Origin: a virus
Lineage: Duplodnaviria > Heunggongvirae > Uroviricota > Caudoviricetes
IMG/VR virus record: IMGVR_UViG_2617271049_000014
DNA length: 17,875 nt
Reading direction: 5' to 3' (one strand)
Position numbers and translations under genes: made by a program. A model generated the notes under the pieces. It was not told the origin of the DNA. It made no database searches and was given only the letters and a program-made list of their open reading frames with translations. Shown here piece by piece: positions 7,322 to 17,875 of the stretch (position 1 is the first letter of the stretch; the number at the start of each line of letters is the position of its first letter).

Positions 7322-7456
7322 TCACATCTTGTTGCTGTGTATAGCGACTTCTGCCTGCCAGAGATCCCAGTCGTTGCTGCGTAAAGCCTGCACAGCCTGG
7401 TTGTAAGTGATACCGCAACAATCCATCAAATACTGAACTACTTCGTAATGCACCAT
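7322..7456 (-). CDS. ydaG: YdaG-like small prophage protein, 44 aa
   Basis: ATG 7454-7456 preceded by GGGGAGAGATAAG. Product MVHYEVVQYLMDCCGITYNQAVQALRSNDWDLWQAEVAIHSNKM. The track ORF begins at an upstream GTG. First gene downstream of the putative leftward promoter. Confidence 0.6.
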   Translation of the reverse strand: MVHYEVVQYLMDCCGITYNQAVQALRSNDWDLWQAEVAIHSNKM

Positions 7457-7624
7457 CTTATCTCTCCCCTTAACGCCGGGTGGCGGAACTGAAACCTGCT
7501 GCACTGCAAAATCTGAACCCTGCCGTCATGTTCATACGCCTCGGGCTGGCTACTTAACCCCTGACCACTGCCTGGTAACTCGAAGTATTGCCCTGCGTTC
7601 TGTGGGGCGGGGTGGGTTGGTAGG

Positions 7625-7680
7625 TATATAATGTACTTTGTGTTCATTGATGTAAAGTACTTTAAGTACATTTTGTGTGT
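7625..7680 (-). promoter_or_regulatory. Putative leftward early promoter (pL-like) with overlapping operator repeats (oL-like)
   Basis: On the minus strand: -35 TTTACA (plus 7651-7656), 17-nt spacer, -10 CATTAT (plus 7628-7633). ATGTACTT at 7631-7638, the 10-bp palindrome AAAGTACTTT at 7655-7664 and AAGTACAT at 7665-7672 overlap the -35 and -10 elements. Confidence 0.45.
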
Positions 7681-7746
7681 AAAAAAATGAGATGGGATAA
7701 AGTGAAGCACAAACCCGGAGGGGGACGCTACCGGATTTATGCTGGT

Positions 7747-8166
7747 TTAAGAGGCTTTTTGTTTTTTCTTTCGTGCTAGCTCTTCGTAAATTGCATTGTA
7801 CTTCTGTTTTTTCTCCTCAAGAGTTTTTAAAAGTTCATCTGTCTCACTGTCAGGGAGCTCGTCCAGAAGGTCAATGATGATTTTTTGTCTTGGATTTAAC
7901 TCCTGATAGAAACGTACCTGTCCACTTTCTTCTGTATCCTCTCCCAAAAGATAGGTTGGTGTTGTTCCAATGAGTGTTGCTAATTCCCTTAATTTCTCTC
8001 GGCGAGGAATTGTTTCGCCATTAAACCATTTGCTAACCGCTTTTGGTGTTAATTTCATTCGACGGGCAATTTCTGCCTGCCTTCCATGTTGTTCATAACC
8101 AGCGTTTTCACAGGCTAGCGCAAGCCTACTGGCGAACTCTTTACGCGCTTTATCTTCATGAACCAT
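7747..8166 (-). CDS. racR: Prophage repressor (RacR-like), N-terminal HTH, no LexA-like peptidase domain, 139 aa
   Basis: ATG 8164-8166. HTH-like segment QAEIARRMKLTPKAVSKWFNG. Divergent from the Cro-like gene across an ~80 bp operator region. The C-terminus is charged and coiled-coil-like (ELARKKKQKAS). Confidence 0.7.
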   Translation of the reverse strand: MVHEDKARKEFASRLALACENAGYEQHGRQAEIARRMKLTPKAVSKWFNGETIPRREKLRELATLIGTTPTYLLGEDTEESGQVRFYQELNPRQKIIIDLLDELPDSETDELLKTLEEKKQKYNAIYEELARKKKQKAS

Positions 8167-8245
8167 AAGTTCAATGATATTCGCTCTTGAATGTACTGTC
8201 AGTTCTGTTATAGCATGTACTCAAAGTTCACATTGTGAGGGTGAT
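8167..8245. promoter_or_regulatory. Divergent promoter/operator region (oR-like) between the repressor and the Cro-like gene
   Basis: Rightward -35 TTGAAT (8187-8192) and -10 TATAGC (8209-8214), spacer 16. ATGTACT occurs at 8191-8197 and 8215-8221, overlapping those elements; the same heptamer recurs in the oL-like region. Confidence 0.5.
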
Positions 8246-8500
8246 ATGAACCAGAAAACACTTGAAGATGTAATCAAAACTGTTCGCGTTTCTGTTGTGG
8301 CCGACGTTTGTGGTGTCAGCCAAAGAGCAATCTACAAATGGATGGATAACGGAAAATTGCCTCGCACAGAATATACCGGCGAAACAAATTACGCTGAAAA
8401 AATCGCTCATGCATCAAACGGATTATTTTCTGCTGATGTAATTTTAACTATTGGCAGAAATAAAACTACTACGAAAAAGCTGATGGGAGTTGATTCATGA
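8246..8500 (+). CDS. ydaS: Cro/XRE-like small HTH protein (YdaS-like), 84 aa from the ATG at 8246
   Basis: ATG 8246 preceded by GAGGGTGAT. HTH-like VSQRAIYKWMDNGKLP. The track start at 8174 lies only 8 nt from the racR start, leaving no room for a promoter. Stop overlaps the ydaT start (ATGA). Confidence 0.65.
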   Translation: MNQKTLEDVIKTVRVSVVADVCGVSQRAIYKWMDNGKLPRTEYTGETNYAEKIAHASNGLFSADVILTIGRNKTTTKKLMGVDS

Positions 8501-8919
8501 AAATCAAGCATGAGCACATCGAGTCAGTGTTGTTAGCCCTGGCAGCCGAAAAAGGGCAGGCATGGGTAGCCAATGCCATTACTGAAGAATATCTGCGCCA
8601 GGGGGGCGGCGAATTGCCCCTGGTACCAGGCAAGGACTGGAATAATCAGCAGAATATCTATCACCGTTGGTTGAAAGGTGAAACGAAAACGCAAAGAGAA
8701 AAAATTCAGAAGCTGATCCCAGCAATTCTGGCAATCCTTCCGCGCGAGCTGCGTCACCGACTCTGCATCTTCGATACCCTGGAACGCCGTGCATTACTGG
8801 CGGCGCAGGAAGCGTTAAGTACGGCAATTGATGCGCATGATGATGCAGTCCAAGCCGTTTACCGGAAAGCGCATTTCAGCGGCGGCGGGTCTTCCGACGA
8901 TTCTGTCATTGTTCATTAA
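8497..8919 (+). CDS. ydaT: YdaT-like prophage protein, 140 aa
   Basis: ATG 8497 coupled to ydaS. Product MKIKHEHIESVLLALAAEKGQAWVANAITEEYLRQGG...; length matches the 140 aa I recall for Rac YdaT. Confidence 0.75.
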   Translation: MKIKHEHIESVLLALAAEKGQAWVANAITEEYLRQGGGELPLVPGKDWNNQQNIYHRWLKGETKTQREKIQKLIPAILAILPRELRHRLCIFDTLERRALLAAQEALSTAIDAHDDAVQAVYRKAHFSGGGSSDDSVIVH

Positions 8920-10594: not shown

Positions 10595-11407
10595 AACCAC
10601 CTCCTCCAAAACATGCATTAAAAATGCATCTTTTGGAGGGTTATGTCAAGCTGTTATGAAACACATAATTGATATGTTGATTAGAGGAGAAGATAGAATA
10701 AATATGGTTGTTTTTCGTATAACTATTTGTTTTACTTTTAGTTTATGCATTCTGTGTGTTAGGAATAAGTTATTAAAGTTTAATCAAAAAATCTCGATGT
10801 AGTCCACATAGATTACTGTTACTGAACCTTATTGTGTGTATTAGTTGTGTTCTGAAATTTCAGCTTAATTATTTATGATGTATTTTTTAACGATAAATAT
10901 TTTCCCAGGATACCTTTACTGTGTATATAAATAAATTATATACGCATAAATAATGTAAAGGCGTCCTTTTAGATATATCTTATCAAATGTTAATGACTTG
11001 AGTGGGAAATATGATTCCAGCAACTTATCATGTGGCTACTTTATAAAAATAATGCCCATATAAAACAACAAGCGAAAAGGATTACGGATAAAAAAGGAGC
11101 GAGATGTGCGAACTTGTTATTTTCCATGTTTAACCACCTTAAATAATTGATGATGACGGGATGATTGCATCTGTAATGCTTTTATTGAAATGTTATGATA
11201 AAAAAGAACTTTTGCATAACATTAAAATGTAATTTATCTAATCGTTTTTAATAATAAGTGTCGTATTTCTATCCTTGTACCAGCTATTTGATATGTAGTG
11301 TTTGTTCATGCTATGTGGGGCTTTACACCATAGCCAGTTTATTTATACTTTATTCGTCAGCCTGAACAACTGGCATCTGCTGCGCTGCGCCATCGAGAGA
11401 TTGAGAA

Positions 11408-13289: not shown

Positions 13290-13821
13290 GGGCTGGTTTA
13301 TTGTATGCCAAATGATTATTAAAAAGGTTGTGTTAATAACAAAATCCGAAATAATATGCCTGCATATTTTTATCTTGCTTATATTCTGCATATTGTGCAT
13401 AGCAGGCTCATCCCTGCAATCAAAACTGTATGATGAGTATTTTTTGTTTTCCTTTTTTCCAGTCATCTGATGATGACCTGCTTCTTTTTAATCCGGATCG
13501 ACATCAGTTTTTTAAGATAATTCCTGCGAGTTATATGCATAAATGCCACAAACTCCGCATTTTATGTGGTTGGGAGTTGCCGGGCGCGCAGTGAGTTTGC
13601 TAAGAAAACTCCTGCATGGTGAATCCCCCTGTGCGGTGGGGTGATACCATTAACCTTTTCTGTCGCCGACAGGTATCACGAACATTTTGTTCACCGGGAG
13701 GCACCCGGCACCATGCACTTCAATAGATTCTCTCCACATTATGGATATTCTTTCAGAATATCCCACGCAGACTTTGTGTAAATGTTAACAAATGTGCGTT
13801 TTATTTGATCTGATTCGCTGT

Positions 13822-13880: not shown

Positions 13881-14309
13881 ATGGGTTTTCGTAGCGCATC
13901 AATTCTTACGTTGATTATTAGTGGGATTATTATCGGGTGCACTGATGCTGTATCGACAAATTATCATGACCGTACATCATATTACTCCGATAAAGCAATA
14001 GAGACACAGTATGTGAGTTCATCTGAACGTACTTCTGATGTTAGTGAGGATATCCGTCTGTATGCCCATCAAATCAAGAGCGCCATCGAAAAACAGTTCG
14101 GGGATGCGAGTAAGTATTCAGGAAAAGAGTGTACACTGAGAATGCATATGGCCCCGAATGGCCTTCTACTGGAGGTTAAAAGAGAAAGTGGAGACCTCGA
14201 TTTATGTCGTGAAGCGATGAATGCGATAAAGAATGCTGATATACCTGCCCCCCCTTCGCCGGAAGTATATAAAGTATTTCAAAATGGGGTGCTGGATTTT
14301 AAACCCTGA
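13881..14309 (+). CDS. Outer-membrane-type lipoprotein with a C-terminal TolA domain III-like domain, 142 aa
   Basis: ATG 13881 with GAGGA RBS. Signal peptide and lipobox IIGC followed by Thr at +2. The C-terminal ~85 aa (YAHQIKSAIEKQFGDASKYSGKECTLRMHMAPNGLLLEVK...DLCREAMNAIKNADIPAPPSPEVYKVFQNGVLDFKP) resembles the TolA C-terminal domain as I recall it, including the terminal LDFKP. Confidence 0.75.
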   Translation: MGFRSASILTLIISGIIIGCTDAVSTNYHDRTSYYSDKAIETQYVSSSERTSDVSEDIRLYAHQIKSAIEKQFGDASKYSGKECTLRMHMAPNGLLLEVKRESGDLDLCREAMNAIKNADIPAPPSPEVYKVFQNGVLDFKP

Positions 14310-14459: not shown

Positions 14460-14855
14460 GTGGGATTAAAGAAAATCGTTATGTTGACTTTTTGGGTCGG
14501 TTTTGTTGCGGGATGCACACCTTTACACCCTTCAGATTGCCACAAAACTACTGCTACAGGTAGTTGCAGTTCAGGACGCTGGGATGATCAGGATGAATGG
14601 GGGGCGCAAGCGCGGGGAATCAGAGCTGCAATTAATGCCAAACTTGATGAGCCGCATAACTGGAAAGGGAAAAAATGCAGGTTGCATATGGAATTCTCTC
14701 AGGATGGCACGGCGTTAAAAATATCTACCAGTAACGGTGATAAAGCCTATTGCGAAGCGATAAAGTCCGCAGCTCATAAAGCCAAATTTCCGGCCTTCAA
14801 CAATCCGGAAGTCTACAGAGATTTTCAGAAATCTGGCTTTGACATGCGAGGTTAG
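14460..14855 (+). CDS. Second lipoprotein, paralogous to the first in its TolA domain III-like C-terminal domain, 131 aa
   Basis: GTG 14460 with GAGGAG RBS at a 6-nt spacer (alternative ATG at 14481). Signal peptide and lipobox VAGC, Thr at +2. C-terminal region GIRAAINAKL...GKKCRLHMEFSQDGTALKIS...GDKAYCEAIKSAAHKAKFPAFNNPEVYRDF aligns with the first lipoprotein (GKxCxL, DGxxLxI, GDxxxC, NPEVY/SPEVY). Confidence 0.7.
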   Translation: MGLKKIVMLTFWVGFVAGCTPLHPSDCHKTTATGSCSSGRWDDQDEWGAQARGIRAAINAKLDEPHNWKGKKCRLHMEFSQDGTALKISTSNGDKAYCEAIKSAAHKAKFPAFNNPEVYRDFQKSGFDMRG

Positions 14856-16280: not shown

Positions 16281-16417
16281 AATCTTAACTACAATATGAT
16301 TCATTTTGATGATTGTTTCATAAGGAACAGTGAAGTAAGATCTAAGAGGAGTTAAATTTTATACAGTATAATCATAATATTGCAGCAAGGTGGTTATAAT
16401 TGAAAGAATATTTAGAT

Positions 16418-17875
16418 ATGAATACATCTCATGTAAGAGTTGTTACTCATATGTGTGGGTTCCTGGTTTGGCTCTATAGTCTTTCAATGTTGCCACCAAT
16501 GGTTGTAGCATTGTTTTATAAAGAAAAAAGCCTGTTCGTTTTCTTTATAACTTTCGTTATATTTTTTTGCATTGGTGGCGGAGCGTGGTATACAACTAAG
16601 AAATCTGGCATTCAATTACGTACCCGTGATGGGTTTATTATAATTGTAATGTTTTGGATTTTGTTTTCTGTTATTAGTGCATTCCCTTTATGGATTGACT
16701 CAGAACTTAATTTAACGTTCATTGATGCTCTGTTTGAAGGGGTTTCTGGAATAACAACAACAGGAGCAACTGTAATTGATGATGTTAGTTCATTACCTCG
16801 GGCATATTTGTACTATCGGTCACAGTTAAATTTTATAGGTGGTTTAGGAGTTATTGTTCTGGCGGTTGCAGTATTGCCATTATTGGGTATTGGTGGTGCA
16901 AAGCTTTATCAGTCAGAAATGCCGGGGCCATTTAAGGATGACAAACTCACTCCCCGCCTGGCCGATACGTCACGGACACTGTGGATAACTTATTCTTTAT
17001 TAGGTATTGCTTGTATTGTCTGTTATAGACTTGCAGGAATGCCTTTGTTTGATGCTATTTGTCACGGGATTTCCACAGTTTCGCTTGGTGGTTTCTCAAC
17101 TCATAGCGAGAGTATCGGATATTTTAATAACTATTTGGTTGAGCTGGTGGCTGGTTCTTTTTCCCTGCTATCGGCTTTCAACTTCACTCTTTGGTATATT
17201 GTTATTAGCAGAAAAACGATAAAACCTTTAATCAGAGATATTGAACTTCGTTTCTTTCTGTTAATAGCCTTAGGGGTGATCATTGTTACCTCTTTCCAGG
17301 TCTGGCATATAGGTATGTATGACTTGCATGGAAGTTTTATTCATTCGTTTTTTCTTGCCAGCTCCATGCTCACTGATAATGGTTTAGCTACGCAGGATTA
17401 TGCAAACTGGCCCACGCACACGATAGTGTTTTTGCTGTTGTCAAGTTTCTTTGGGGGATGTATAGGTTCAACCTGTGGTGGAATTAAGTCACTTCGATTT
17501 CTTATACTTTTCAAACAAAGCAAACACGAGATAAATCAGCTTTCTCATCCCAGAGCGTTGTTGAGTGTAAATGTAGGAGGGAAGATAGTTACAGATCGTG
17601 TAATGAGGTCTGTATGGAGTTTCTTTTTTCTTTATACTCTCTTCACGGTGTTTTTTATACTGGTGTTAAATGGTATGGGATATGATTTTCTTACATCATT
17701 TGCAACAGTGGCTGCATGTATTAATAATATGGGATTAGGTTTTGGGGCTACTGCATCGTCATTCGGAGTGCTTAATGACATTGCAAAATATTTAATGTGC
17801 ATAGCTATGATTCTTGGTCGCCTTGAAATTTATCCTGTTATTATATTGTTTTCAGGTTTTTTTTGGCGCTCCTAA
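16418..17875 (+). CDS. trkG: TrkG potassium uptake transporter (TrkH family), 485 aa
   Basis: Polytopic membrane protein from ATG 16418 (MNTSHVRVVTHMCGFLVWLYSL...); the track ORF begins at an upstream TTG. AT-rich codon usage. Stop TAA at 17873-17875 is the window end. Confidence 0.9.
   Translation: MNTSHVRVVTHMCGFLVWLYSLSMLPPMVVALFYKEKSLFVFFITFVIFFCIGGGAWYTTKKSGIQLRTRDGFIIIVMFWILFSVISAFPLWIDSELNLTFIDALFEGVSGITTTGATVIDDVSSLPRAYLYYRSQLNFIGGLGVIVLAVAVLPLLGIGGAKLYQSEMPGPFKDDKLTPRLADTSRTLWITYSLLGIACIVCYRLAGMPLFDAICHGISTVSLGGFSTHSESIGYFNNYLVELVAGSFSLLSAFNFTLWYIVISRKTIKPLIRDIELRFFLLIALGVIIVTSFQVWHIGMYDLHGSFIHSFFLASSMLTDNGLATQDYANWPTHTIVFLLLSSFFGGCIGSTCGGIKSLRFLILFKQSKHEINQLSHPRALLSVNVGGKIVTDRVMRSVWSFFFLYTLFTVFFILVLNGMGYDFLTSFATVAACINNMGLGFGATASSFGVLNDIAKYLMCIAMILGRLEIYPVIILFSGFFWRS

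Follow-up and report, generated by a model that had tools for sequence, protein, structure and literature searches.

Probable HK022/933W-family operators on both sides of a short repressor gene in a Rac-type prophage

Introduction

The virus record IMGVR_UViG_2617271049_000014 raises the question of what the heptamer ATGTACT does on the two sides of a 139-amino-acid repressor gene, and which protein reads it. The stretch analysed here comprises 17,875 bp and is called the window; all positions count from its first letter. A preliminary description of this DNA proposed that the heptamer marks operators in the oL/oR layout of lambda, around a repressor that lacks a LexA-like autocleavage domain. 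The copies of ATGTACT are very probably the better-conserved halves of five operators of the HK022/933W family within a lambdoid immunity cassette. The operator type is already known from HK022 and 933W, and no new kind of regulatory element is involved.

Results and Discussion

The heptamers are very probably halves of five operators

ATGTACT or its reverse complement occurred at 7631 (+), 7665 (-), 8191 (+) and 8215 (+), with no other copy in the window, and these are the four positions flanking the repressor gene that were originally given. The total was unremarkable, with 4 copies observed versus 1.67 expected and at least 4 copies in 19 of 200 shuffles. The placement was non-random, as all four copies fell in the spacers, 203 bp in total, that flank the repressor open reading frame (7747-8166, - strand). 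The Poisson probability of this clustering, based on local composition, was about 1e-7, and the length ratio gave (203/17875)^4 = 1.7e-8. The enrichment that had been proposed as a measure was found in the placement of the copies and not in their number. In a 20.7-kb stretch of Escherichia coli E2865 with the same prophage, the heptamer was present at these four places only, and in phage Tritos (46 kb) four of the seven copies were at these places.

When the four copies were aligned, each heptamer was the stronger, left half of a 17-bp pseudo-palindrome, ATGTACT-N3-AGTWCAT. A pattern search of the window with this pseudo-palindrome returned a fifth site, ATGAACCATAAGTTCAA, at 8158-8174. The general operator core was TGWAC-N5-GTWCA, which the five sites matched with no or one mismatch. 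There were three exact core matches in the window (0.07 expected), all at predicted sites, and five matches with one mismatch (2.07 expected), two of which were the remaining operators. All three exact matches in the 46-kb Tritos genome lay in its immunity region. The heptamer itself was not borne out as the functional unit; the unit is a pseudo-palindrome of 15-17 bp. The predicted sites, promoters and repressor gene are as follows.

7628-7656, - strand: predicted pL from the promoter scan, with -35 TTTACA (7656-7651), a 17-nt spacer and -10 CATTAT (7633-7628)
7631-7647, + strand: predicted oL1, ATGTACTTTGTGTTCAT, core TGTACTTTGTGTTCA; exact core match; lies in the pL spacer and overlaps the pL -10
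7655-7671, - strand: predicted oL2, ATGTACTTAAAGTACTT on the minus strand; one core mismatch; contains the decamer palindrome
7747-8166, - strand: repressor gene, 139 amino acids; helix-turn-helix (HTH) domain (residues 1-75), disordered linker and DicA-like two-helix C-terminal module (about 88-139)
8158-8174, + strand: predicted OR3, ATGAACCATAAGTTCAA; exact core match; overlies the predicted pRM start and the repressor ATG (8166-8164)
8174-8202, - strand: predicted pRM, with -35 CTGACA (8202-8197, inside OR2), a 17-nt spacer and -10 TATCAT (8179-8174)
8187-8214, + strand: predicted pR, with -35 TTGAAT (8187-8192), a 16-nt spacer, -10 TATAGC (8209-8214) and TG at 8206-8207
8191-8207, + strand: predicted OR2, ATGTACTGTCAGTTCTG; one core mismatch; lies in the pR spacer and contains the pRM -35
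8215-8231, + strand: predicted OR1, ATGTACTCAAAGTTCAC; exact core match; covers the predicted pR start

Centre to centre, oL1-oL2 and OR1-OR2 are each 24 bp apart, and OR2-OR3 33 bp. The right-hand sites number three, where two had been recognised earlier; OR3 and the half-sites of the ATGAAC type had been missed. It had also been claimed that every heptamer overlaps a -35 or -10 element. This was true of 8191-8197, which touches the -35 elements of both pR (8187-8192) and pRM (8202-8197), and of 7631-7637, which overlaps the pL -10 (7633-7628). It was not true of the other two: 8215-8221 abuts the pR -10 (8209-8214) and covers the predicted pR start site, and 7665-7671 lies upstream of the pL -35, an element that oL2 touches with its other half only. 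As stated, AAAGTACTTT is a perfectly palindromic decamer, but its position is 7654-7663, one base to the left of that given; it forms the weaker half of oL2 and is no separate element. With up to two mismatches allowed, neither a third oL site nor a distal site like that of HK022 was found in a sensible position in the window.

The pRM promoter matched the consensus at 10 of 12 positions in the promoter scan. Its predicted start lies at or next to the ATG, so the repressor mRNA would be leaderless. The predicted starts of pR and pRM are only about 54 bp apart. The pR promoter was predicted by reading the sequence together with the conservation of alignment columns.

A further operator-like sequence, ATGTAGTGTTTGTTCAT, was present at 11293-11309 in a 600-bp AT-rich spacer upstream of a DUF1367 gene. 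Its single mismatch hits the essential C, and it was taken as a chance match, since three one-mismatch matches outside the operators compare with 2.07 expected.

The sites are conserved across related loci

A database search was performed with the repressor, and 35 genomic loci of related proteins were fetched. The relatives included short proteins in E. coli and Salmonella, and also proteins of 216-240 amino acids with an S24 peptidase domain, whose first 75 residues were 62-72% identical to the window repressor. The sequence TPKAVSKWFNG was invariant across these relatives.

The three right-hand sites were located at the same distances from the repressor start in 21 distinct loci, which came from Shigella/E. 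coli, Kluyvera, Klebsiella, Enterobacter, Brenneria, Providencia, Photobacterium, Vibrio, Pseudomonas, a Pseudooceanicola metagenome-assembled genome and phage HK022. A tally of the alignment columns at oR showed that the half-sites were kept, while the operator centres and spacers varied freely. OR1 was kept in all related loci and OR2 was conserved as GGAACTGAtAGTaCA in the 21 loci. OR3 was present in nearly all related loci with this repressor family and absent from a few variants. The promoter elements were kept as well. For pR these are a -10 resembling CATAAT and a -35 resembling TTGC; for pRM, whose columns were conserved in the 21 loci, they are a TAtnAT -10 and a CTGAtA -35. The pR -10 of the window, TATAGC, aligned with the CATAAT of the relatives.

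On the left-hand side, the oL pair was kept in the 21 loci as TGTAC-N5-GTACT, then TTACA, four bases, TGAAC-N5-GTACA and TTAT. From this column conservation, pL reads TTTACA-17-CATTAT; its spacer holds oL1, and oL2 lies immediately upstream. The pL hexamers were kept at these positions in most of the 21 loci, and a few variants differed. The core mismatch of oL2, which most of these loci share, is attributed to the overlap with the pL -35. Read from the aligned columns, the conservation of oL is a strong phylogenetic footprint.

In loci of Pasteurellaceae, OR1 and OR3 were kept in a variant layout, and the OR3 equivalent, TTGAACCGTTAGTTCAA, was located upstream of the ribosome-binding site. 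Therefore, OR3 is kept as a DNA site and not for coding Met-Val-His/Gln. In Enterobacterales and Vibrio, OR3 doubles as these first repressor codons, and the conserved repressor N-terminus MV(Q/H) seems, from these alignments, to be dictated by the operator.

An HK022-like oR and repressor start were also present on a contig of 1 kb labelled Streptomyces sp. This is probably enterobacterial contamination of the assembly.

The operators resemble those of HK022 and 933W

The operator sequence had been described as different from that of lambda. It does differ from lambda's, but it is not new, as it is of the HK022/933W type, TGWAC-N5-GTWCA. The HK022 sequence reads GTGAACTTATGGTTCAT at OR1, CGGAACTGATAGTACAG at OR2 and TTGAACTTATGGTTCAA at OR3, which lies over the cI start; the OL sites are ATGTACTATTGGTACTT and ATGAACTTTAAGTACAT. 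HK022 and the window share the operator core, the spacing of OR1, OR2 and OR3, two adjacent OL sites, the placement of the promoters and the recognition helix TPKA(V/I)SKWFNGE, and the 15-bp cores of their OR3 sites are identical. DNA identity to HK022 was 80% over oL and 70% from the N-terminal domain of the repressor through oR to cro.

Differences from HK022 were also found. The 235 amino acids of HK022 CI include an Ala-Gly cleavage site and a peptidase domain of the S24 Ser/Lys type, whereas the window repressor has a DicA-like helical module. HK022 further contains, about 267 bp past OR1, a distal operator, and its OL has a third site; neither was seen in the window. HK022 also has a lambda-type cII and putL where the window has a YdaT-type gene and a different leader. 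The HK022 immunity region (CI, Cro, OL and OR) is attributed to Carlson and Little 1993 as cited in PMC8053113, and HK022 CI binds cooperatively at adjacent operators and mediates OL-OR looping (PMC8053113). Three related loci also keep the distal operator of HK022 (1164-1178 of that locus), which the window cassette lacks and which probably corresponds to the 'antivirulence element' of the literature.

In the GenBank record of phage 24B, which has 933W immunity, the annotated operators are OR1 CGTACTTTCAGTACG, OR2 and OR3 CGTACTCATGGTTCA, the last of which overlies the cI start. Hexamers of pR and pRM are likewise marked, with the pRM start placed a single base ahead of the ATG; the arrangement is that of the window. 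Together with the conservation across loci, this annotation supports the claim of the preliminary description that the motif belongs to operators flanking the repressor gene, arranged as oL and oR are in lambda.

The half-site of the 933W repressor is C-G-(A/T)-A-C-T with T preferred at position 3, and it is contacted by S41, K42 and K46 (PMC3317979). In 933W, PRM is partly repressed at repressor concentrations that fill OR2 (PMC4848623). The 933W/24B system, studied in the Koudelka and Friedman laboratories, shares with the window the half-site x-G-(A/T)-A-C-T, three OR and two OL sites, an OR3 that covers the start of cI, a pRM transcript without a leader, the pRM -35 inside OR2, and K42/K46. 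In contrast, the 933W N-terminal domain is 51% identical, residue 41 is Ser (Pro here), the outer base of the half-site is C (T here), and the 933W repressor is of the cleavable S24 type.

The repressor combines an HK022-type DNA-binding domain with a DicA-like module

The 139-amino-acid repressor matched Pfam HTH_3 and gave no S24 (PF00717) match, in agreement with the earlier statement that it lacks a LexA-like domain. In the alignment, the peptidase motifs GDSM and KR occurred only in the long relatives. When phage genomes were searched by tblastn, the N-terminal domain was 58% identical to HK022 CI and 51% to 933W CI. The recognition helix reads TPKAVSKW here, TPKAISKW in HK022 and SSKGVSKW in 933W. 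K42 and K46 are conserved in the window repressor, and residue 41 is Pro, as in HK022.

BLASTP against K-12 DicA gave 29% identity over residues 30-137, covering both domains (E 5e-15). The NCBIfam DicA model (NF007257) scored 56.8 bits, below its cut-off of 101, which places the protein outside that subfamily. The C-terminal part alone matched phrog_5736 (E 6.5e-17), and its motif LLxLFxxLPxSE...EKKxxYDxLxEEL recurs on many repressors of 120-160 amino acids with different HTH domains. In the AlphaFold2 model, with a mean pLDDT (predicted local distance difference test) of 82.6, residues 2-74 form an HTH domain of five helices and residues 77-87 a disordered linker, followed by two helices at 92-103 and 106-138. 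A Foldseek search of this model against the PDB returned generic HTH matches only, none with E <= 0.001.

DicA of Qin and the short Gifsy repressors share with the window repressor a length of about 135-140 amino acids, an HTH domain followed by a short helical module with the motif LLxLFxxLPxSE...EKKxxYD, the lack of an Ala-Gly site or S24 domain, operators on both sides of the gene, and a DUF1391 gene downstream. By its sequence, the short repressor belongs to this known class of non-cleavable DicA/Gifsy-like repressors. However, DicA binds sites of the TTGTTAGTCATAACTAACAA type (PMC3441716) and its HTH domain is P22-C2-like. Identity of the window operators with those of DicA was rejected, as the DicA sites are of the TTAG...CTAA type.

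The PaaR2/YdaS/YdaT system of CP-933P in E. coli O157:H7 likewise has a CI analogue that is short and lacks S24; its repressor mRNA is leaderless, both OR and OL sites are present, and YdaS and YdaT serve as analogues of Cro and CII (PMC8630535). It differs in using GTTTAGTAA repeats as the operator, and the window has no toxin-antitoxin genes downstream of the repressor. Identity with this system was rejected because the operator differs, and a PDB sequence search matched only the P22 C2 N-terminal domain and no PaaR2 entry. Because the operators of DicA and PaaR2 both differ from those of the window, the repressor combines an HK022-type DNA-binding domain with a DicA-type module. No description of this combination was found in the literature searched, and a literature search for the literal motif ATGTACT returned nothing relevant.

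Phage Tritos carries the same repressor

Phage Tritos, prophage 3 of the Crohn's-associated E. coli LF82, has a CI protein 100% identical to the window repressor. In lysogens, expression of its CI gene exceeds the prophage background 24-fold, its virions are released spontaneously at 2.8e6 genomes per mL, and it forms plaques on K-12 (PMC9928086). Ciprofloxacin was a strong inducer of Gally and Cyrano, the phages reported as induced did not include Tritos, and trimethoprim lowered Tritos output 3.4-fold (PMC9928086). The view that induction would not proceed through RecA-mediated cleavage fits both the lack of an S24 domain and the absence of Tritos from the phages reported as induced. Replacement of the SOS-sensing peptidase domain by the DicA-like module is a possible explanation of that absence.

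Repressors of this class can be relieved by other proteins. DicA is relieved by the antirepressor Rem (PMC10448788), and the Gifsy repressors are relieved by the LexA-controlled antirepressors GfoA, GfhA and GftA (PMC3121763). TRITO_42 was unrelated to Rem. No perfect LexA box (CTGT-N8-ACAG) was present in the window or in Tritos; boxes with one mismatch numbered 11 versus 5.4 expected, none of them convincingly placed.

Tritos lysogens express an ImmA/IrrE-type metallopeptidase fused to an XRE HTH domain, which is encoded at 36945-38090 of the phage. In other elements, short XRE repressors are cleaved by proteases of the ImmA type. No ImmA/IrrE-type gene was present among the window open reading frames scanned.

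The proposed switch lies on an exchangeable immunity cassette

The cassette and the genes to the right of oR are as follows.

7623-8490: exchangeable immunity cassette, 868 bp, with oL, repressor, oR and cro in Rac-type flanks
8246-8500, + strand: cro-like gene, 84 amino acids; HTH protein; 62% identical to HK022 Cro (E 2e-34), aligns with 933W Cro; phrog_35
8497-8919, + strand: YdaT/CII-like gene

Compared with a Rac phage that encodes the 158-amino-acid RacR, the flanks were 92.8% identical up to 7622 and 98.9% from 8491, and nothing between them could be aligned. Because the similarity stops at these two borders, 7623-8490 was taken as the exchangeable unit; it contains exactly oL, the repressor, oR and cro, which is what an immunity module should contain. 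The pairing of HK022/933W-type operators with a short DicA-like repressor is a product of ordinary modular exchange. The suspicion that this immunity type is not that of K-12 RacR proved justified, as vB_EcoS-683R6 carries the RacR cassette between the same flanks without similarity to 7623-8490.

The cassette was present in 1047 of 5426 complete E. coli genomes, including strains of O157:H7 and O104:H4, and also in several sequenced phages. The window is a Rac-type prophage with RalA/RalR, recET, kilR and sieB; after these come Q-like genes, lysis genes and a trkG-like gene. The copy of this prophage in E. coli E2865 is located beside ttcA, next to the Rac-type integrase intR.

A model of the switch and its alternatives

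In the proposed model, dimers of the 139-amino-acid repressor would bind the operators through the HTH domain. Its TPKAVSKW matches the HK022 CI helix at all but one position, and the two lysines that contact half-site positions 4 and 5 in the 933W repressor are kept. OR1 and OR2 cover the start and spacer of pR, and their occupancy would shut off cro, the ydaT/cII-like gene and the replication genes. Occupancy of oL1 in the pL spacer and of oL2 just upstream of the -35 would shut off the leftward operon (kilR, recET and others). OR3, over the start of the leaderless repressor transcript, would limit repressor synthesis. As the pRM -35 lies inside OR2 and the starts of pR and pRM are so close, the repressor probably limits its own synthesis at modest occupancy, as in 933W. 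The distance between oL and oR that possible looping would span is about 560 bp. With a DicA-like module instead of S24, RecA-stimulated self-cleavage could not flip the switch, which may be flipped spontaneously or by some further factor, such as an antirepressor.

The layout follows lambda in its divergent pL and pR flanking the repressor gene, in pseudo-palindromes of 17 bp with 24 bp between the centres of neighbours, and in a leaderless cI mRNA. It differs from lambda in operator sequence, in having two oL sites instead of three, and in an OR2-OR3 distance of 33 bp instead of 23 bp. Furthermore, the pRM -35 is beside OR2 in lambda but inside OR2 in the window, and the window repressor has no S24 domain.

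The Cro protein, a homologue of HK022 Cro, presumably uses the same sites. Cro is also homologous to 933W Cro, and lambdoid Cro proteins share operators with the repressor, so the sites might be used mainly by Cro, or by the YdaT/cII-like protein, and not by the 139-amino-acid repressor. This is improbable, because the sites co-occur with the conserved recognition helix of the repressor across loci and include oL and an OR3 over the repressor start. The YdaT of CP-933P recognises another sequence, TTGATT-N6-AATCAA (PMC9986795), and shared use by Cro belongs within the proposed repressor switch and does not replace it.

The window prophage is defective, with lysis genes and then a trkG-like gene at its end and no virion genes, and its repressor is shorter than the S24 relatives. 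These features would suit a decayed remnant in which the protein is a truncated HK022-type CI and the operators are relics. Such decay is an unlikely account, because the C-terminal part is a conserved module found on many short repressors and folds into two confidently predicted helices, the plaque-forming Tritos uses the identical gene, which its lysogen expresses, and the cassette is intact in the 1047 complete genomes. That the heptamers are chance or a by-product of AT-rich promoter sequence is barely credible: their total count is insignificant (4 versus 1.67 expected) and the sites overlap promoter hexamers, but all copies lie in 203 bp (P about 1e-7), the palindromic 15-mer keeps fixed positions across genera with otherwise unrelated spacers and variable centres, and the 933W-immunity record lists the equivalent sites as operators, those of 933W having been characterised experimentally.

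Several points weigh against the repressor-operator switch preferred here. The pR promoter fell below the threshold of the promoter scan and is a weak match to the consensus (TTGAAT/TATAGC). The position of the pRM -35 within OR2 would be compatible with activation of pRM by the repressor as well as with mere repression. What the sequences show is the cassette borders, the homologies of the proteins and the sites with their conservation; we infer repressor binding, promoter start sites, the order of occupancy and the induction route. The cooperativity and looping of HK022 CI go with an S24-type C-terminal domain and need not carry over to one of the DicA type. The data on the lack of Tritos induction come from a polylysogen, quantitative PCR and one drug dose. 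Finally, no antirepressor was found; a tblastn search with Rem gave no match in the window or Tritos, although a divergent antirepressor is possible.

On balance, this is an ordinary but well-supported phage switch, in which an HK022-type system would have exchanged its peptidase domain for a DicA-like module, and cross-immunity with HK022-type phages is possible. The analysis provides a precise, testable operator and promoter map for a cassette common among E. coli and present in the viable phage Tritos. We propose, tentatively and with more doubt than confidence, that a short uncleavable repressor in about one fifth of complete E. coli genomes, mostly in Rac- and Qin-like prophages, reads the operators of HK022 CI. 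In that case such prophages, which are often cryptic, could make their hosts immune to phages of the HK022 immunity type. The two systems would then form a natural experiment, with the same operator geometry served by two unrelated C-terminal modules (SOS-cleavable S24 and DicA-like helical), and the contribution of the C-terminal domain to cooperativity, looping and induction would be directly testable.

Leader region and distal features

The segment 7465-7622, just downstream of the predicted pL start, was 89-93% identical in lambdoid phages of other immunity types, and the mosaic boundary fell exactly at 7622/7623. The putL antiterminator RNA of HK022 is located at the place equivalent to 7465-7622, with only patchy similarity. 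For a put-like or other RNA in the pL leader (7460-7622) there was no Rfam match, and the folding of this segment was not unusual (z = +1.3). A stretch of 62 nt (7424-7485) was 98% identical to part of Aeromonas phage AP1, a 254-kb jumbo phage, which is odd for an E. coli prophage leader.

Further to the right, the segments 13584-13770, 13881-14309, 14460-14855 and 16400-17875 included a match to the small RNA STnc100, two open reading frames with a TolA C-terminal domain, and the trkG-like gene (TrkH family), which runs off the end of the window.

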